Notes: generated by a model not told the origin, from the sequence alone. Counted from the first letter of the stretch, positions 7,230 to 29,072 are shown. The stretch is DNA of 54,960 nucleotides from Candidatus Heimdallarchaeota archaeon (GCA_020348965.1 CP070760.1:2624298-2679257), one strand, 5' to 3'. Numbers and translations: made by a program.

Positions 7230-8459
7230 CTACTTCTGGAATTTAATTTGCAATCGAATTTCCTCATCACCAACCAATGAGCTTAAAGTTATCCGATCAC
7301 CATCCGAGAGAAAGTCTGCTATGATTCCATCTTCAGGGAGAAGTTTATTGCCAAGAAATCCAACAGTATCTTTACTTTTCTTAGGTTGAGTTTTCTCAAA
7401 TAAAGTCTTGAATTTTGAGGATGGATCAACCTCTACTTCAAAAAATGTTTGAGAATCAATTGTGGGTTGACCACAAACAAGACAATTAGGATCAGGAACC
7501 ATCTCAAAAGTGTTTATTGACCCAGTCAAGGCTGAATAAATAAAAAGCGAAGGGATTCTAAATCTGTGAGTATCAATCAAGAAATCTAGTCTTTTCATTT
7601 CGTTTTTTTTAAAAGACGTTCTCTTTTCTAGAAAAAGAGCTTTCAGGATTTCTTGGGATTGTATTCCACTGGTTACTGCATTAACAGTTATTAAACTAGG
7701 TACACGGAAAAGTATTAGTTGCAGGAGTTCTTTTTCGTCGAAATTACTATAGTTATATTTTTTAGCATATTTATTAGCAAAATTCGTGAGTATGGAAAGA
7801 TCCTCTTGAGAGGTTTCTAATGGTTCGCGATCATATGACGTGTTGAAGTCGTAGAGTGCTTTCCATGCACAATGTTCTCTTTGGCGGGGAGCCCCCACGA
7901 GTGTACATGGAGCTGTCAATATACGAGTTTCGTCCGGAGGAGCCGGATTATCACAGGCAAGACAGGCTGTTTTTCTAGGATTAATATATTGTACTTGGCC
8001 AAAAAAACCATCTGTAGCAGAATCGATCAGCGGTTTATTCAATTCAACCGCCATCGCATTAATAAATTGCCTTGCCAAGAAATTATCAACACACCCAGCA
8101 ATGATATCTACCTCCCGAAAAGCTCTTTGAGGGATTCTTTGAAGAATATCAGGAAAACTCTCAATTTTAATATCGGGATTATATTGTTCCTGAATTCTCA
8201 TTCTTGCGATTTCTGACTTTTTCTCGCCAACATCTTCTTCTCTGAATAACATTTGACGATTTAAGTTTGAAAACTCAATGGTGTCCGCGTCGACCAAAAT
8301 TAATTTCCCAGTGCCTAAAAGAGCTAAATTTTTTGCTACCTCGCTGCCTGTCCCCCCAACTCCTGCAATTAAAATTTGACTGTCTTCAATAATTTGCTGA
8401 TCCCAAAGAGACAATCTTTTTTGACGGTCATATTTAGAAGAAGGAAGATCTTGTGACAT
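7230..8459 (-). CDS. Ubiquitin-activating enzyme E1-like (ThiF/MoeB/UBA fold with C-terminal ubiquitin-fold-like domain)
   Basis: Nucleotide loop GVGGTGSEVAKNLALLG and DADTIEFSNLNRQ. Eukaryote-like catalytic-Cys segment TAPCTLVGAPRQREHCAWKA. Zn pairs CLAC and CLVC. Confidence 0.85.
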   Translation of the reverse strand: MSQDLPSSKYDRQKRLSLWDQQIIEDSQILIAGVGGTGSEVAKNLALLGTGKLILVDADTIEFSNLNRQMLFREEDVGEKKSEIARMRIQEQYNPDIKIESFPDILQRIPQRAFREVDIIAGCVDNFLARQFINAMAVELNKPLIDSATDGFFGQVQYINPRKTACLACDNPAPPDETRILTAPCTLVGAPRQREHCAWKALYDFNTSYDREPLETSQEDLSILTNFANKYAKKYNYSNFDEKELLQLILFRVPSLITVNAVTSGIQSQEILKALFLEKRTSFKKNEMKRLDFLIDTHRFRIPSLFIYSALTGSINTFEMVPDPNCLVCGQPTIDSQTFFEVEVDPSSKFKTLFEKTQPKKSKDTVGFLGNKLLPEDGIIADFLSDGDRITLSSLVGDEEIRLQIKFQK

Positions 8460-19460: not shown

Positions 19461-20531
19461 CTAAAGGTCTTCTGGTAGGTAAATAGCGAATTTGCATAAA
19501 TCGTCGCCGTTGAGAATTGACTTGACGATTTCAATTCGCACTGGTTTTCCGATAGTACCTTCCCATTGTCGTCGGTACCACCCAGCACCACAATAACAAA
19601 ATGTTTTAGGAACCCCCTTATCTAGATGGTTACGAACAAGGGGACAGAAACAATATGCCTTTCTCTTTTCAGATTCATTGGTCGCTTCTTCATATTTTTT
19701 GGGGTCACGTGGCATTTTAGATGAATAAATGATATTTCCACTTCTGAAAGGTGGCTTAGGCCAGGCGGGATCCTTTTCCATGAATTCTATTACAGCATCA
19801 ATTGCCTTCAGAGGGTCTTTCGTCTGTTCTTCTATATTCTCATAGATCTTTCTGGCCTTTTCAATGGGTTCACTCGGAAAGACATGAGCGCAGCTCGATA
19901 GGATATCATACTTCTGATCTTCAGTAGCCAACTTATCTAGACTCTCCATTACTCTTCTTAGCCACTGGACTCGTTCATCAAGAGGAGAATCAAGAGAAAG
20001 TTGATTATTCTCTTGCATAATCTCTTGCTTCTTTTCTTCACCGAGAACACGCTCTAAATTTTTGGCAAGTAACTGATTCCAATTATGGATGATGAATTGT
20101 AACTCAACCTTTTTTCCTACTGGATTATTGGAGTCAATAAAGACTTCTCGAGAAAACTCATCAGAAACCACTCCCTGCTCTGTTGCATGGCTATAGAGCT
20201 TTCTGGTGCTCTCCCCAATTTTTTCCACTGTGCCTTCGTGGATCATCGATAAAACTTCAATTTGAGGTAACATTCTGGTCTTAATCTCACCAGTTTCTAC
20301 AGTATGACTTATTGGAAACCCTACCTCAACATCAAATCCTTCTTTTACACTGGATACAAAGTGATAGATACAGAACGCAGGGCCTAAGATGTACTCTTGA
20401 GGAATACTTTGAGATAACTCATTGATGACTGAATGCAATTCTTTTCTGCCTTTAAGATTAAACCGAATGGTAGCAATAAGTGAATTTGGGATTATTTTAT
20501 ACTCAATTCCCTGTTCTTTTAGTATCATCAT
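19461..20531 (-). CDS. GyrI-like ligand-binding domain fused to a Cys-rich C-terminal domain
   Basis: N-terminal about 150 aa show a GyrI/SOUL-like beta-alpha pattern. The C-terminus has CFCP...CYCGAGWY...DLCKF. Confidence 0.55.
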   Translation of the reverse strand: MMILKEQGIEYKIIPNSLIATIRFNLKGRKELHSVINELSQSIPQEYILGPAFCIYHFVSSVKEGFDVEVGFPISHTVETGEIKTRMLPQIEVLSMIHEGTVEKIGESTRKLYSHATEQGVVSDEFSREVFIDSNNPVGKKVELQFIIHNWNQLLAKNLERVLGEEKKQEIMQENNQLSLDSPLDERVQWLRRVMESLDKLATEDQKYDILSSCAHVFPSEPIEKARKIYENIEEQTKDPLKAIDAVIEFMEKDPAWPKPPFRSGNIIYSSKMPRDPKKYEEATNESEKRKAYCFCPLVRNHLDKGVPKTFCYCGAGWYRRQWEGTIGKPVRIEIVKSILNGDDLCKFAIYLPEDL

Positions 20532-23107: not shown

Positions 23108-24076
23108 TCAATTCGGAAAATAGGATTTTTTAACAATGAAATCAGGCTGTTGTCCTGTTAAAGCCTTTTTAATCTGCTTAACAATAACTTTTCCAACTCG
23201 TTTTTGAGCTTCAGTTGTTGTGGCTCCAATATGGGGGGAAACATAGATGTTTTCGAGCTCAAATAATTTGTTATTTCTTACAGGTTCGTCAGCAAACACA
23301 TCGAGTGCTGCTCCTGCAATCTTATTTTTTTTCAAGGCATTATAAAGGGCATCTTCGTCAATGATACCTCCTCGGGCACAGTTTATTAGGTAAGCGGTTG
23401 TTTTCATGAGTTCTAACTCTCGTCTGCCAATCAAACCTTGAGTCTCTGCTTTTAGTTTTGTATGAATTGTAACAAAATCCGATACTTGAAGTAGATAATC
23501 AAGATCATCAGTTCTTTCCACTTTCATTTTTTCAGTGACTTCAGGAGGAACGTTAGGAGAGTAAATTAGACATTTCATCCCAAAAACTTTTGCCCTTGTA
23601 ATTACTTCAGTACCAATTTTTCCACAGCCTATACACCCTAATATTTTGTCATGTAATTCTGTACGTCTTAACCATTTTTTCGGATTCTTATTTGACTTAG
23701 TTTCATTTGTTACATTGACTAGACGACAGCTGAGAGCAAGCATGTATGTCAATGTCAGTTCTGCGACAGAAATAACAGAAGATTGTGGCGCGTTTACGAC
23801 TAGAATCCCTCTTTCTGTGGCAGCCTTCACATCAATGTTATCGACCCCAATTCCAGCTCGGCCAATCACTTTTAGCTGGGTGCCTCTTTCTATAGCCTCC
23901 CGTGGAAGCTTGGTAGCACTACGGACAATAATTGCATGGTATTTACCTATTTCATTTAATAATTCGGTTGGAGAGTAGTGTTGTTCCGTTACTTCAAACT
24001 CTTTTTGTAATTCTGCTATTGCAGAAGGTGCTATTGGATCAGTTACCAAAATTTTTATGTTTTGTTCAGAGTTCAT
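23108..24076 (-). CDS. D-isomer-specific 2-hydroxyacid dehydrogenase (3-phosphoglycerate dehydrogenase-like, no ACT domain)
   Basis: GRAGIGVDNID, NAD loop GCIGCGKIG, NCARGG, DVFADEP, SPHIG. Confidence 0.8.
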   Translation of the reverse strand: MNSEQNIKILVTDPIAPSAIAELQKEFEVTEQHYSPTELLNEIGKYHAIIVRSATKLPREAIERGTQLKVIGRAGIGVDNIDVKAATERGILVVNAPQSSVISVAELTLTYMLALSCRLVNVTNETKSNKNPKKWLRRTELHDKILGCIGCGKIGTEVITRAKVFGMKCLIYSPNVPPEVTEKMKVERTDDLDYLLQVSDFVTIHTKLKAETQGLIGRRELELMKTTAYLINCARGGIIDEDALYNALKKNKIAGAALDVFADEPVRNNKLFELENIYVSPHIGATTTEAQKRVGKVIVKQIKKALTGQQPDFIVKKSYFPN

Positions 24077-24312
24077 AATCCTATTTCACCTCAATCTCTA
24101 ATAATCATACCTTTCAAGCTTGTTTGAACTAGAAATCTCAATTTATTGATCTAGAAGTGAAATTGTTAATAAGAATAGAATATCCTACGGATTCTCGGAA
24201 TGACTACTCCACGAAAGAAAAAATCAAAAAAAAATGGAATTCAATTGGCTTGCTGAATCATATAAAAAAACAATTTTATTGCCATGATGGATTCAATTTT
24301 TACCAATTAGAT

Positions 24313-27300
24313 TTAAATGAATTGCTCTTTTTCCTTAGCTCGTCTTATAGAAAGTTCTAGCGCGCTTTTCAAGATTTTTAAAAAAGATATTCCTTTAGAT
24401 GTAATAATGTAGTGCCGATATCGTCCATCATGAAGAACTTGAGGGGTAACATGAAAATCAAGGTAGTTAAGTTTTATTAGTTTTTTTAATTCATCCGAAA
24501 GAGTTGATGCGGGGATATCTAGGGCTTGAGACAACTTAGTAAGATTAGCGTCCTCTGAATACTGGAAAGCTATTTCTATCAATGTTAGTATGGTTCTTCC
24601 TTTTAATTTTGTTTTTAATTCCACACGATAATCATCTGGAAACCACGTAACTAAGCTTGTGGGCATTGTTGGTTCTTCTAAAAGTGGAGTTACCACAGAT
24701 TCAGGCAAAATCGTGGTTTGTATGCTTTCCAGACCAACAATCACTTTATGGTATATCGGCTTTAGGAATTCAATTCTATCTGATTGGAAGTATTCAATGA
24801 AACTCGGGGCTCTAAATTTTGTGTTCACAAGGTAGTATCCTGCTGCTATGGAGCACACAGTCAGTAGAAAAGCCAATATCCACACTCCAATTCCACCTGA
24901 AGGTGAAGAGAGTTGATGAGAGTTGACAATAAGAAATGTCTCTGTAGAAACAGATTTCGTAACGAAACCAACAGAATCAATGGTATGTATTTTGAACGAA
25001 ATATTCGTTCTATCTACGATTGTGGTTGTATCAAATGTATAATTTGTTGAAGTTAACCCCGAGGCAAGCATTGTCCAATTTATTCCCTCTTCTGTTGAGT
25101 AAAAGAGGGAATAAGTAAGGGAATGCCCAAATGTATCGATTGAGGAAGTCCATTGAATGGTCACATTATTTGATAATGTCGAAGAATCGTGTGTTGGGGA
25201 CGTAATGACAGGTGCTAATAGGTGATAGGGATTTGTTAAGGGGGAGGAATCTTGATTCTCCGTCGTACCATCAATGAGATATGTTCCTGTACCCGTCCAA
25301 TCACTCCAATAGTTGTGTGCGAAGACATTATTGGAACCATTATCAACTGCCTGAGAGCCTTCAGCATTATTCCTACTAAAATCATTGAACTGCACGAAGT
25401 TATATTTACTGAGTTCATCGGTAATAATTCCATCTTTTAAATTGTCAAAGATAATATTCTGAGCAATCGTGTTATTCTCTGCTCCCCAGAGGTGAATTCC
25501 ATGTAAATTGGTCTTGAAAACAATATTATTTGAAATTGTCGTATTCTCCGAGGCTTCAAGAGTAATGCCATATAGACTATTATTACCAACTCTATTATTA
25601 CAAACCATGTTGTCATAAGTTAAGTATAGAAAGATATCTCCACGGTTATTATAACCAGTATTATTAATTAGAGTGGTTTTATTGGTGTAGTGATGAAGGT
25701 TAATACCCCATCGGTTATCATGAAGAGTATTATTACTTATAGTTAAATGAGAACAGAAAACAGCTGATACCCCCATATAGGTGTTAGATATAGTCTGGTC
25801 AGCAATGAGTACATTTGTACAATTGAACAAAAAAACCTGGCCAGCTCCTTGCGGAACGGTTCCCCCATTTGTATCTTCCCAATAGATAAATGGTTTCCCA
25901 TTTATGGAGTTATTCGCAACTATTTTTTGTTTATAATTCTTAATGTTTGGACCCACAAAGCCAATTCCCTTATTTGTAAGAGAATTATTTTCGATAGAAT
26001 TATGCTTTGAATCATCAACAAGTATTCCATGTCTGTTATGGTCTACTATTTCAGTAGCGTGAACGGTATTCTTGATTATGATAGTATTACTGGATTTTTC
26101 GACCCAAATCCCATATTTATTGTTATACACACTGTTCTTAATCAGATTGTTATAGCTACTATTCCAAAGCCAGATACCTGCCCAGAAGTTACTGTAAGCT
26201 GTATTATTGATAATAGAATTATTCTCAGATAATGATAGTTCAATCCCATGTATGTTATTATTATAGATATCATTACGTGTAATTGTATTGTTATCACTAT
26301 TACGATTGATCCCTAGATCATCAAATGGACTTAAGGAAATCCCAGTTATCATATTATTGTAGATTGAATTATTGAGAACAGAGTTATTAATAGAACCGAA
26401 AAGATGAATTCCATCATTGGTATTATCAAACACTTCGTTGTTAGTAACTATTGTAGTATTAGCTAATGTTACGCTAATTCCATGCCTACCGTTATTTCTG
26501 ATAATATTATTTGAAACAACCGTATTCTTGGAAACATATATTAGCATTCCATTGTCAAAATTATCGATCACAGTGTTATTGGATATAATAGCGGAGGAAT
26601 TACTCAGACTAATACCACTTGTCCAATAATCCGAGATACCCGACCCCGAGACGTTTCGGCTATTATTGAAACAGGTATTATTGATAATGGTATTGAAAAT
26701 ATCTAGATTGACTTGAGATAGTGAGACGAGAATTCCACTCCCTCCACTATTATAAATGGTATTTGAATAAAGGGTGTTATTATTGGAATCAGCCTCCCCT
26801 ACGCCAATTCCACGTGTACCGTGATTATACACAGTATTATGGGAAAGGATGTTATCACTGGAGGAGAAGAGTAAAATTCCCGTGTACGGGTGATCGTGAA
26901 TGGAGTTATTAGAAATAAAGTTGTTACTAGATTCTCTTAGACCGATTCCATTCCAATCATTCTCATGAATAGAATTATTGAATATTTTGTTATTGTCAGC
27001 ATCCTCAATAGCAATACCACTTCCATTATTACAATAAGCTTGATTCCTAATGATAAAACAATTATTTGAACCTGATTCAATGTTAATTCCCGCTCCACCT
27101 GAATTATAAATGGTATTGGATTCAATTGTATTGTTTTCAGATGCCGAAACCAGAATACCATTCCAGCTATTGTCATAGATCGTATTATTGACAATAGTAC
27201 CATGACTGACATCATCAAAATAGATCCCATTCCCTATAGTTCCTAATCCATTGACAAGACAATTTGCAACATGGAAATGATAAGTCGTGTCACTAATAGA

Positions 27301-27741
27301 AATGAGTGTTCCACTTGAAGCAGTGATATTGTACCCTTCAATCCGAATAGGATCATCAATGGTGCCATTGCCTTGAAATCCCGAATTATTTAATTGAAAA
27401 TCCGAGGCAATGATAATCGGTCCGCGTTCGATATACGATTGAGTACTAGAGATTTTATGGATAGGGTGTTGAGAGTGTTTTTCCCTCGTATTCGTGTGTT
27501 TCTCCTCACTTATAGGTTGAAATTCCCGCAGATTTACCTGATCATTCTTCTCACCCCCAATAAACGATCCTGTTGTACTACCCACCAAAATTTTTATATC
27601 AGAGGAAGGTGTTAATTTTTTATTTTGATCTCTGTAGATATTATCTGCAAAACAAAGAGTAGAGTAATTTATAAACACAAATATCAGAATTAAAATAAAA
27701 AAAACAGTTTTATGGTTCATTCGATGTTTTTTATGCCCCAT
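24313..27741 (-). CDS. Giant type I membrane protein: signal peptide, about 30 parallel beta-helix (PbH1/NosD-like) repeats, Ig-like domain, TM helix, cytoplasmic winged-helix (ArsR/MarR-like) domain
   Basis: N-terminal HKTVFFILILIFVFINYSTLCFA. Repeated N-N-[ST]-[IV]-x-x-N...GI units. TM GGIGVWILAFLLTVCSIAAGYYLV (nt 24826-24897) followed by NTKFR. wHTH-like LTKLSQALDIPASTLSDELKKLIKLNYLD...DGRYRHYIITSKG (nt about 24370-24597). Confidence 0.7.
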   Translation of the reverse strand: MGHKKHRMNHKTVFFILILIFVFINYSTLCFADNIYRDQNKKLTPSSDIKILVGSTTGSFIGGEKNDQVNLREFQPISEEKHTNTREKHSQHPIHKISSTQSYIERGPIIIASDFQLNNSGFQGNGTIDDPIRIEGYNITASSGTLISISDTTYHFHVANCLVNGLGTIGNGIYFDDVSHGTIVNNTIYDNSWNGILVSASENNTIESNTIYNSGGAGINIESGSNNCFIIRNQAYCNNGSGIAIEDADNNKIFNNSIHENDWNGIGLRESSNNFISNNSIHDHPYTGILLFSSSDNILSHNTVYNHGTRGIGVGEADSNNNTLYSNTIYNSGGSGILVSLSQVNLDIFNTIINNTCFNNSRNVSGSGISDYWTSGISLSNSSAIISNNTVIDNFDNGMLIYVSKNTVVSNNIIRNNGRHGISVTLANTTIVTNNEVFDNTNDGIHLFGSINNSVLNNSIYNNMITGISLSPFDDLGINRNSDNNTITRNDIYNNNIHGIELSLSENNSIINNTAYSNFWAGIWLWNSSYNNLIKNSVYNNKYGIWVEKSSNTIIIKNTVHATEIVDHNRHGILVDDSKHNSIENNSLTNKGIGFVGPNIKNYKQKIVANNSINGKPFIYWEDTNGGTVPQGAGQVFLFNCTNVLIADQTISNTYMGVSAVFCSHLTISNNTLHDNRWGINLHHYTNKTTLINNTGYNNRGDIFLYLTYDNMVCNNRVGNNSLYGITLEASENTTISNNIVFKTNLHGIHLWGAENNTIAQNIIFDNLKDGIITDELSKYNFVQFNDFSRNNAEGSQAVDNGSNNVFAHNYWSDWTGTGTYLIDGTTENQDSSPLTNPYHLLAPVITSPTHDSSTLSNNVTIQWTSSIDTFGHSLTYSLFYSTEEGINWTMLASGLTSTNYTFDTTTIVDRTNISFKIHTIDSVGFVTKSVSTETFLIVNSHQLSSPSGGIGVWILAFLLTVCSIAAGYYLVNTKFRAPSFIEYFQSDRIEFLKPIYHKVIVGLESIQTTILPESVVTPLLEEPTMPTSLVTWFPDDYRVELKTKLKGRTILTLIEIAFQYSEDANLTKLSQALDIPASTLSDELKKLIKLNYLDFHVTPQVLHDGRYRHYIITSKGISFLKILKSALELSIRRAKEKEQFI

Positions 27742-28124
27742 CAACACCCTAGCCCCTTATCTTGATTGCATTCTGTCATTCGATCCGTTACTTCATTAAT
27801 AGCAGAATAATACTCAAATCTTGAATAGTTGTTTTGGAGATCATCAATTATTATTACTTTTCCATTTTTAAATGAAATCTACTTATTCACCATCGTTAAA
27901 ATACCAAAGAGAATTTAGTTTACATATTAGATTCAATAGTTTTAATTTCTTCCTCCATAAAATTGCTGAATCTAAATCGGAACTTTAATACTGTTCAGTT
28001 TATCAGCTTTCAATCACAATTAAACATGATTTTGACGCATCTATGAACCCTTTATCGCTTATAACCACAAATAAAAGGAAAATCCCCCAACACCATCTGT
28101 CACATTCAAAGGAAACAAGTAAAA

Positions 28125-29072
28125 ATGAAAATATTGATAGCAGATTCGATTGCAGCTTCTGCAGTAGCAGAACTAGAAAAAGAGTTCGAAGTAATAGAAC
28201 ATCACTACTCCACAACCGAATTGGTAAATGAGATAAGTAAATACGACGCGATTATCGTCCGAAGTGCTACAAAAATTACCCCTGAGGTTATTGAGAAAGC
28301 ATCATTACTGAAAGTAATTGGAAGGGCTGGGATTGGAGTAGACAACATTGATGTGAGTGCTGCTACAGAACGAGGAATATTTGTTGTAAACTCCCCTCGT
28401 GCTTCTACAATTTCTGTCGCGGAAATGACAATAGCTTTTATCCTCGCTCTGAGTCGCAAAATTATCCAAGCTTCCAGTCGAACTAAGAAGGGTGAATGGC
28501 CTAAAAAACAGCTTATGGGAATGGAACTATTTGGTAAAACATTAGGATTTGTCGGTTGTGGGAGGATAGGAGCCGAGGTAGTGAAAAGAGCCAAAGCTTT
28601 CGGATTGAAATGTTTGGTTTATGATCCATATCTTCCTGATGAAGCTTTCCATAAGATCGGAGCCGAAAAAGTAGAAGATCTTAAACTTATATTACAAAAG
28701 TCTGATTTTATCACGATTCATGCCTTATTAACGGATGAAACTCGTGGGATGATCAGTAAGGACGAATTGGATCAAATGAAGCCTTCTGCATTCATCATAA
28801 ATTGTGCACGGGGAGGTATTATTGATGAAGATGCTTTATATGATGCCTTAAAAGAAAACAAGATTGCGGGAGCAGCCCTGGATGTATTTGCAGTTGAACC
28901 TGTGAAAAATAACAAGTTGTTTGAACTTGAAAATGTTTACGTCTCTCCCCACATAAGTGCCTCTACAAAAGAAGCACAAGAAAGGGCAGGACAGATTACA
29001 GCTGAGCAAGTTCGATTGGTTTTAAAAGGCCAGAAACCTGAATTTAGTGTCAATGCTCACCTACTAGAATGA
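28125..29072 (+). CDS. D-isomer-specific 2-hydroxyacid dehydrogenase (paralog of 23108-24076)
   Basis: Same motif set (GRAGIGVDNID, GFVGCGRIG, NCARGG, DVFAVEP, SPHIS). Roughly 60 percent identical by eye to the other copy. Confidence 0.8.
   Translation: MKILIADSIAASAVAELEKEFEVIEHHYSTTELVNEISKYDAIIVRSATKITPEVIEKASLLKVIGRAGIGVDNIDVSAATERGIFVVNSPRASTISVAEMTIAFILALSRKIIQASSRTKKGEWPKKQLMGMELFGKTLGFVGCGRIGAEVVKRAKAFGLKCLVYDPYLPDEAFHKIGAEKVEDLKLILQKSDFITIHALLTDETRGMISKDELDQMKPSAFIINCARGGIIDEDALYDALKENKIAGAALDVFAVEPVKNNKLFELENVYVSPHISASTKEAQERAGQITAEQVRLVLKGQKPEFSVNAHLLE

Follow-up and report, generated by a model that had tools for sequence, protein, structure and literature searches.

Why should a surface protein built around a beta-helix carry a domain of DNA-binding type on the other side of the membrane? 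The question is raised by one gene in a 54,960-nucleotide (nt) stretch of DNA from Candidatus Heimdallarchaeota archaeon (GCA_020348965.1 CP070760.1:2624298-2679257), analysed here over its full length and referred to as the window. An intact open reading frame (ORF) on the minus strand, 24313..27747, encodes 1,144 amino acids (aa) from a GTG codon or 1,142 aa from an ATG at 27741; the ATG is the start used by NCBI and also in the original prediction, which had been made from the sequence alone. The 1,142-aa product is 100% identical to UCE13131.1, a protein encoded on a 3.16-Mb contig of a Ca. Heimdallarchaeota metagenome-assembled genome (MAG) and named by NCBI only "right-handed parallel beta-helix repeat-containing protein". 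An exact look-up in a contig index gave no match to the product, despite its presence in NCBI under this accession. Judged from its sequence and from structural models, the product is a beta-helix surface protein that passes the membrane once and has a MarR-like domain in the cytoplasm, and on balance we favor the view that it is a membrane-bound one-component transcription regulator with the build of a type I receptor. The domain order that had been proposed (signal peptide, beta-helix, Fn3, transmembrane [TM] helix, cytoplasmic winged helix-turn-helix [wHTH]) holds, each element being present where it had been placed:

24313..27741, minus strand: whole gene, 1142 aa plus stop (stop codon 24313-24315; alternative GTG start at 27747)
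27646..27741, minus strand: signal-peptide-like N-terminus, aa 1-32 (basic n-region, 13-aa h-region, then C-F-A/D)
27355..27645, minus strand: N-terminal extracellular region, aa 33-129, without a Pfam or NCBIfam match
25297..27354, minus strand: right-handed parallel beta-helix of PbH1/NosD type, aa ~130-815, Asn-rich, ~29 coils of 22-25 aa
24922..25233, minus strand: membrane-proximal Fn3-like beta-sandwich, aa 837-940 (AlphaFold2 [AF2] and Foldseek; kept in most family members)
24826..24894, minus strand: single TM helix, aa 950-972 (hydropathy), with AAGY at its cytoplasmic end
24718..24819, minus strand: basic stop-transfer segment and conserved juxtamembrane helix, aa 975-1008 (alignment A2, AF2, Foldseek)
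24655..24717, minus strand: variable, low-confidence linker, aa 1009-1029, with a P-L-L-E-(E)-P motif
24400..24654, minus strand: wHTH core, aa 1030-1114 (alignments, profile, AF2, Foldseek)
24562-24600, minus strand: most conserved helix of the wHTH core, GRTILTLIEIAFQ
24520-24543, minus strand: helix-turn-helix (HTH) helix LTKLSQAL
24472-24510, minus strand: recognition helix ASTLSDELKKLIK
24400-24471, minus strand: wing with D-x-R...T-x-K-G
24319..24399, minus strand: long C-terminal helix, aa 1115-1141 (AF2 helix, tail residues 141-167)

The cytoplasmic tail, 168 aa long, was aligned across 43 sequences (alignment A2). In this alignment the TM helix, small-x-small-[YF] and K/R residues are followed by F.E..QS..IEFLK.IYHKVIIGLEN and by a variable linker containing P-L-L-E-P, after which come FP.DI...L.S..KGRTVL.LIEIAYQ, L.IP.STLS.EIKKL..L.YI and L.D.R...Y.IT.KG..FL..LK. 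The juxtamembrane helix carries the motif F.E.FQSD.IEFLK.IYHKVIVGLE, in which the K of YHK is invariant, and the wing signature is D-x-R-x5-[IL]-T-x-x-G, with D, R and G the same in all 43 tails and T and K conserved in at least 90% of them. The best HTH match of the window protein by itself is HTH_27 (E 0.006, 17.2 bits against a cutoff of 22.2), with MarR_2 not reported, and its tail matches only PadR 5dym (E ~1) among PDB sequences. Searched as a family profile, the tail finds MarR HsmR and PadR in the PDB at E = 0.0017, and chains of MarR (HsmR), PadR, ZitR/AdcR, TubR and FabT are matched at E 0.002-0.02. In the profile alignment, the family's D-x-R-x5-T-x-x-G falls on the MarR wing, residue for residue with HsmR, and the C-terminal helix aligns with the C-terminal helices of the same protein; hhalign to E. 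coli MarR placed the wing signature in the identical register. At the family level (116 aligned sequences), Pfam MarR_2 is found in 24 sequences (best 4.3e-7), HTH_27 in 18 and HTH_34 in 10, and several relatives are named "DNA-binding MarR family transcriptional regulator" by the JGI and NCBI pipelines.

The AF2 model of the tail, built from a 7-sequence alignment (pLDDT 75, pTM 0.76), has an alpha-alpha-alpha-beta-beta core and runs from the juxtamembrane helix (tail residues 16-34, in a block with pLDDT up to 90) through a disordered insert and three helices to a beta-hairpin wing and, last, a long C-terminal helix. The linker has pLDDT <50 at tail residues 38-45 and an alignment entropy of 2.87. 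When this model was compared with the PDB using Foldseek, all 50 of the top 50 matches were MarR-family or related small winged-helix regulators, including MexR, MepR, ZitR, FabT-DNA and HpaR-DNA (probability 1.00, TM-score 0.45-0.6), and some of the alignments, at 150-159 columns, extended over the whole MarR protomer (MexR). The model makes the juxtamembrane helix a candidate equivalent of the MarR alpha-1 dimerization helix and the long C-terminal helix a candidate equivalent of alpha-5/6. We call the tail divergent and MarR-like, rather than a member of the family by the Pfam rule, because the window protein lies below the curated threshold; by profile and predicted fold it is nevertheless a complete MarR-like module, closer to MarR/PadR than to ArsR. 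Thus, of the ArsR/MarR-like wHTH that had been proposed, the winged helix is upheld by AF2, Foldseek and the family profile, and the ArsR-like part is not.

The placement of this module inside the cell depends on the topology of the protein, which by hydropathy has exactly two hydrophobic segments, aa 12-32 and aa 950-972. The first is preceded by the n-region MGHKKHRMNHK and followed by C-F-A/D-N, and a hydrophobic segment at the N-terminus is found in 48 of 69 complete-looking family members; it may be cleaved or may be kept as an anchor, and the tail would be cytoplasmic in both cases. The second is the single TM helix, which had been put at nt 24826-24897 and lies at nt 24826-24894; in the family alignment it ends with a conserved small-x-small-[YF] motif, and K/R residues come next. 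Counting Lys and Arg over the 15 residues that follow the TM helix and the 15 that precede it in 89 family members gave averages of 3.2 and 0.9, respectively, with more after the helix in 81 members, equal numbers in 8 and fewer in none. The window protein itself has 35 N-x-S/T sequons in the ectodomain and 1 in the tail, and Asn makes up 15.8% of the ectodomain and 1.2% of the tail, which is Lys/Glu-rich like a cytoplasmic protein. By the positive-inside rule, the tail lies in the cytoplasm and the predicted orientation is N-out/C-in, as the original prediction had it. An extracellular tail was rejected, no reversed charge bias having been seen in the 89 members compared, and so was an anchor of the PGF-CTERM type, since a conserved 168-aa tail comes after the TM helix.

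The TM helix and tail together are not peculiar to this protein. The extent of the family became visible only when TM plus tail was run exhaustively against 1.84 billion cluster representatives with HMMER, a search that returned 115 proteins at E <= 1e-3, 100 of them <1e-10; in a word-indexed homologue search the tail alone had found 1 protein and the 43-sequence profile 6. Counted as clusters at 50% identity, the family has ~115 members, and in almost all of the 115 proteins the match is at the extreme C-terminus. The ectodomains joined to this module include beta-helix/NosD (33 members), WD40 (5), NHL (1) and ANF_receptor/Peripla_BP_6 (3), and in two proteins (P0118 and P0119) the ectodomain consists of a signal peptide and one Fn3 only. 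The single NHL beta-propeller protein (P0026, 935 aa, Hodarchaeales) has an extra zinc ribbon C-terminal to its MarR-like tail. Free-standing paralogues of 116-144 aa carry the wHTH part only, and one of them, from Hodarchaeales, is named a MarR family regulator by NCBI. A chance ORF fusion is excluded because the TM-plus-tail module recurs in so many clusters and in two closed genomes, and the reading frame is unbroken across the TM helix in all family cases examined. A single TM-spanning polypeptide combines an extracytoplasmic input with a cytoplasmic output of DNA-binding type, and one output module is found with several unrelated ectodomains, as in the modular inputs of membrane-bound one-component regulators.

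All named sources of the family are Hodarchaeales/Hodarchaeota, Kariarchaeaceae, Heimdallarchaeota or "Asgard group", and its sequences suggest a lineage-restricted, modular Fn3-TM-MarR receptor family. It is apparently undescribed: full-text literature, of which journal coverage was incomplete, yielded no description of the TM-plus-MarR-tail architecture or of the family in Asgard archaea. The family is also rare in public data, with 2 loci in a genome scan (in the two closed genomes) and only 4 in a metagenome scan, and no locus examined has tandem copies of the gene. Some of the shorter or broken copies call for caution. A 233-aa protein (P0039) that might have been read as evidence of domain fission corresponds to the 3' part of a beta-helix-Fn3-TM-tail gene that a frameshift has split, and another (P0117) was set aside as a short form, as it starts within the end of the beta-helix. 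In a Hodarchaeales MAG (L004/L005, 6757-8702), the beta-helix ORF of L004 stops at 7746 and Fn3-TM-tail continues in another frame, and at a further locus (L009, 1560-3800) the protein as called begins within the last part of the beta-helix, 13 nt past a 391-aa ORF. Such split genes could be pseudogenes, assembly errors or cases of frameshifting.

The ectodomain of the window protein is dominated by its beta-helix, which scores above curated thresholds for Beta_helix (PF13229; 254.8 bits, 3e-76) and NosD (PF05048; 225.1 bits, 8e-67), and to which the NCBIfam model TIGR03804 (para_beta_helix) adds 214 bits across 12 stretches of the protein. Pfam and NCBIfam thus confirm the PbH1/NosD repeats that had been seen, with a length of ~690 aa in place of ~900 aa. 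The protein is not a true NosD: it scores 111 bits against the cutoff of 300 of the equivalog model TIGR04247, nos genes are absent among the ten flanking genes scanned, and there is no nosZ or nosFY gene in the window. The beta-helix likely binds a glycan or a surface. In a separate recurrent surface architecture, many Asgard proteins (P0125, P0146, P0148, P0156, P0158, P0162, P0164 and P0185) join a beta-helix to solute-binding domains (Bmp, SBP_bac_5, SBP_bac_1/8 or ANF_receptor) and have no MarR tail.

Between the beta-helix and the membrane lies the Fn3-like domain. Pfam fn3 has no match there, and only weak matches to Kre9_KNH, Reelin-B and Tissue_fac were obtained. The AF2 model of aa 837-950 (12-sequence alignment, pLDDT 87) is a beta-sandwich with the seven-stranded Fn3 topology, and its best Foldseek matches are Fn3 domains (E 1e-4, TM-score up to 0.69-0.77), the structural neighbors being 3mpc (a Clostridium Fn3-like protein), titin, Robo3 and IL-7R, with tissue factor also matched. 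The earlier assignment of an Ig/Fn3-like domain is therefore borne out. The domain also bears an Asp-box-like hairpin, S-x-[DE]-x-G-x-x-W (alignment A4).

Comparison of orthologous loci shows where constraint lies along the protein. The gene has a conserved neighborhood in Hodarchaeales, with a 2-hydroxyacid dehydrogenase gene divergent upstream and a paralogous dehydrogenase, L15e, RNase P p30 and Rpp14 downstream. The syntenic orthologues are 759-1142 aa long and share 51-89% identity with the window protein along the tail, against 28-33% along the beta-helix and 31-39% along the Fn3 domain. Constraint is thus strongest on the cytoplasmic tail, and the tail cannot be an incidental appendage. 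In the window, the features around the gene that bear on its regulation are as follows:

23108-24076, minus strand: D-isomer 2-hydroxyacid dehydrogenase, downstream copy
27974-28002, no strand assigned: conserved ~30-nt block in the divergent intergenic region (alignment of four orthologous loci)
28125-29072, plus strand: D-isomer 2-hydroxyacid dehydrogenase (2-Hacid_dh), divergent upstream copy

The two dehydrogenases are 62% identical. Both copies flank the orthologue in L002, in L006/L007 and probably in L008, and the downstream copy alone is present in L003 and L010; these genes could be regulatory targets, or they could be the remains of a duplication that enclosed the receptor gene. The conserved block reads TAAAATGAATAGTATTAAACTTCCG on the minus strand and contains the BRE/TATA-like CGGAAGTTTAATA on the plus strand, ~120 nt upstream of the dehydrogenase ATG. 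By sequence it could be the dehydrogenase promoter or an operator, and it may or may not be part of the system. Ten flanking genes were scanned, and their products are 2-Hacid_dh, L15e, RNase P subunits, a GTPase and others of this kind. Neither a partner protease nor a transporter recurs beside family members, where the only recurrent neighbors are the flanking 2-Hacid_dh genes, at the orthologous locus; an Arf/Ras/Roc-type small GTPase gene (L001, 9885-10472) and a T6SS_HCP-domain gene (L010, 2365-2979) lie near family members in a linkage that does not recur. An Rfam scan of 24000-28200 gave two sub-threshold matches, SNORD51 (25 bits, E 0.41; 24242-24310, plus strand, in the 3' intergenic region) and salivarius-1 (E 0.85), and we read both as probable chance matches because the C/D box order is non-canonical. 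Elsewhere in the window, 19461-20531 on the minus strand encodes a 356-aa protein with a GyrI-like small-molecule-binding domain and DUF6144, unrelated to the receptor gene.

How might such a protein work? If it is a membrane-bound one-component regulator, it would form a homodimer, standing or induced, through its MarR-type N- and C-terminal helices and its TM helices, and engagement of a ligand or a surface by the ectodomain would alter the geometry of the TM and juxtamembrane region. The altered geometry would in turn affect how far apart the two recognition helices stand or how available they are, so that binding to a chromosomal operator would be switched while the protein remained in the membrane, the ectodomain signal taking the role that small ligands have at the MarR dimer interface. 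The first helix of the tail starts ~15 residues past the TM helix, and ectodomain engagement could therefore reposition it and so switch DNA binding. Archaea have no nuclear envelope, and for this reason a release step would not be needed. A candidate target would be the conserved, divergent 2-hydroxyacid dehydrogenase gene. The idea of a one-component transmembrane sensor, already raised in the original prediction, gains real support from the occurrence of the module on unrelated ectodomains, including ANF/Peripla_BP_6, and from the conservation of the tail over that of the ectodomain.

Several observations weigh against this interpretation. A beta-helix is not a classical sensor of small ligands. 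The neighboring genes are housekeeping genes and form no obvious regulon, and no convincing palindromic operator was found upstream, the flanking intergenic regions holding only two weak AT-rich inverted repeats. The window protein alone reaches none of the Pfam HTH gathering thresholds (PF01047, PF12802, PF13463), solved MarR proteins are matched weakly in sequence (E ~1e-3 to 1e-2), and the tail model, based on a 7-sequence alignment, has TM-scores to MarR of only ~0.5. Finally, the exposed residues of the recognition helix, S-T-x-S-x-E-x-K-K, are highly conserved among paralogues with different ectodomains. Transcription factors with separate regulons rarely show such constancy, which could reflect either one operator or one protein partner common to the paralogues.

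The second of these possibilities leads to the alternative that survives best, although we think it unlikely: that the tail is a MarR-derived module for protein interaction or sequestration and not a DNA binder. It might then anchor the beta-helix protein to a cytoplasmic partner, or heterodimerize with soluble paralogues at the membrane, in the manner of an anti-sigma factor or of Mlc-PtsG. The near-invariance of both the recognition-helix surface and the GRTVL.LIEIA.Q helix among paralogues that differ in their ectodomains would fit a common partner, the soluble paralogues have the same C-terminal helix, so that mixed dimers could form, and the upstream DNA examined did not yield an operator. 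However, the invariant residues include the classical D-x-R and T-x-x-G positions of the MarR wing, which build and present the part of the wing that contacts DNA, and the structural neighbors of the tail are all regulators that bind DNA, several with structures solved in complex with it.

More doubtful still, in our judgment, is a membrane-tethered transcription factor freed by proteolysis, following the logic of Notch, SREBP or RsiW, with engagement or shedding of the ectodomain as the trigger. Here a cut within the TM helix or the disordered P-L-L-E-P linker would free a ~115-aa wHTH to bind DNA. A variable, low-confidence linker with a semi-conserved PLLEP does separate the juxtamembrane helix from the wHTH, and the free-standing paralogues begin almost exactly past this linker, so that the released piece would be an autonomous unit. 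Set against this, the TM helix has no conserved helix-destabilizing residues except the small-x-small-[YF] at its end, and no site-2 protease, rhomboid or other protease is recurrent next to family members. In addition, the juxtamembrane helix is conserved and forms part of the MarR-like protomer in the model, so that a cut would remove the alpha-1 equivalent, and release would be superfluous in a cell without a nucleus. The proteolytic release suggested in the original prediction thus finds no evidence here.

The view that this is an ordinary surface or S-layer-associated beta-helix adhesin or enzyme with an incidental or degenerate tail, or an artefactual fusion of two genes, draws on the lack of the tail in most of the 120 closest Asgard beta-helix homologues listed (it is present in 7 of them, in addition to the window protein), on an NCBI annotation that stops at the beta-helix repeats and on the frameshift-split members in some MAGs, but it is very improbable and is effectively refuted by the conservation data, the tail being the best-conserved part (89% against 33% identity to the closest syntenic orthologue), the module occurring in the ~115 clusters with unrelated ectodomains and in both closed genomes, and the frame being continuous through the TM helix in every case.

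Returning to the membrane-bound one-component regulator, precedents exist for its logic. The closest in layout is Vibrio cholerae TfoS, in which a TM helix joins a periplasmic domain to a C-terminal AraC HTH in the cytoplasm; its signal is chitin oligosaccharides, and dimerization or a conformational switch while in the membrane is the mechanism proposed for it (PMC3903286). The two proteins have in common a large N-terminal domain outside the cytoplasm, a single TM helix and an HTH at the cytoplasmic C-terminus, whereas TfoS is bacterial and of the AraC type, has an unrelated ectodomain and no Fn3 stalk, and shows no sequence homology to the window protein. The remark that an N-out/C-in orientation is unusual for a prokaryotic HTH protein is therefore fair insofar as the arrangement is uncommon, but TfoS gives it a clear precedent (PMC3903286). 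Among archaea, Sulfolobus ArnR and ArnR1 are membrane-anchored one-component regulators that bind promoters directly; ArnR has an N-terminal HTH, then cytoplasmic HAMP-like and sensor domains, and two C-terminal TM helices (PMC6396743). ArnR, too, unites a membrane anchor and an HTH in one archaeal polypeptide, but it lacks a large ectodomain and its domain order is opposite to that of the window protein. ToxR, CadC and TcpP are likewise single-pass proteins with a cytoplasmic wHTH and an outside sensor that bind DNA at the membrane, but they are bacterial, of type II, with an N-terminal OmpR-type wHTH and small periplasmic sensors; CadC is additionally activated by proteolysis (PMC11484849). 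Membership in the ToxR/CadC family was rejected, given a wHTH that is C-terminal and MarR-like and an N-out/C-in topology. The window protein belongs to none of the TfoS, ToxR, CadC and ArnR families because the domain types differ, as does the topology of ToxR, CadC and ArnR, and its resemblance to them would be one of functional logic, by analogy.

Likenesses can also be drawn for the separate parts. The tail shares its predicted fold, terminal helices and wing signature with the soluble MarR repressors (MexR, MepR, ZitR/AdcR, FabT and E. coli MarR), but these are proteins of ~140-150 aa whose dimer interface responds to small ligands or oxidation, whereas the window protein is TM-tethered, has a ~20-aa insert after alpha-1 and is sub-threshold in Pfam when taken alone. 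The ectodomain resembles NosD/PbH1 surface proteins in its strong matches to Pfam NosD and Beta_helix. With eukaryotic type I receptors such as the class I cytokine receptors and Notch, the protein shares a logic of signal peptide, ectodomain, membrane-proximal Fn3, TM helix and effector, but this is analogy only: no evidence of homology goes further than the ubiquitous Fn3 fold, and in the window protein the role of effector falls to a prokaryotic MarR wHTH.

How Asgard archaea transduce signals is almost unexplored, and the public annotation of UCE13131.1 ends at "beta-helix repeat protein". If the protein is the regulator that we favor, it would offer a testable route from the sensing of surfaces, glycans or partners to transcription in the closest archaeal relatives of eukaryotes, and it would be a natural MarR dimer controlled via a TM helix and not by a small cytoplasmic ligand. 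The family would then also be a set of ready-made chimeric receptors, with one output and many inputs, of interest to synthetic biology, and the tail is amenable to expression and to DNA-binding assays without culturing the organism. More tentatively, and with less confidence than we place in the regulator itself, we suggest that Heimdallarchaeia, and Hodarchaeales especially, may possess their own expanded class of type I single-pass receptors, in which interchangeable ectodomains are mounted on an Fn3-TM-MarR cassette for direct signaling from surface to DNA, possibly by ligand-induced dimerization or by regulated release of the wHTH. If so, these receptors would have no described counterpart in other archaea and would be the closest prokaryotic architectural analogue of cytokine-receptor and Notch signaling, in the lineage nearest to eukaryotes.

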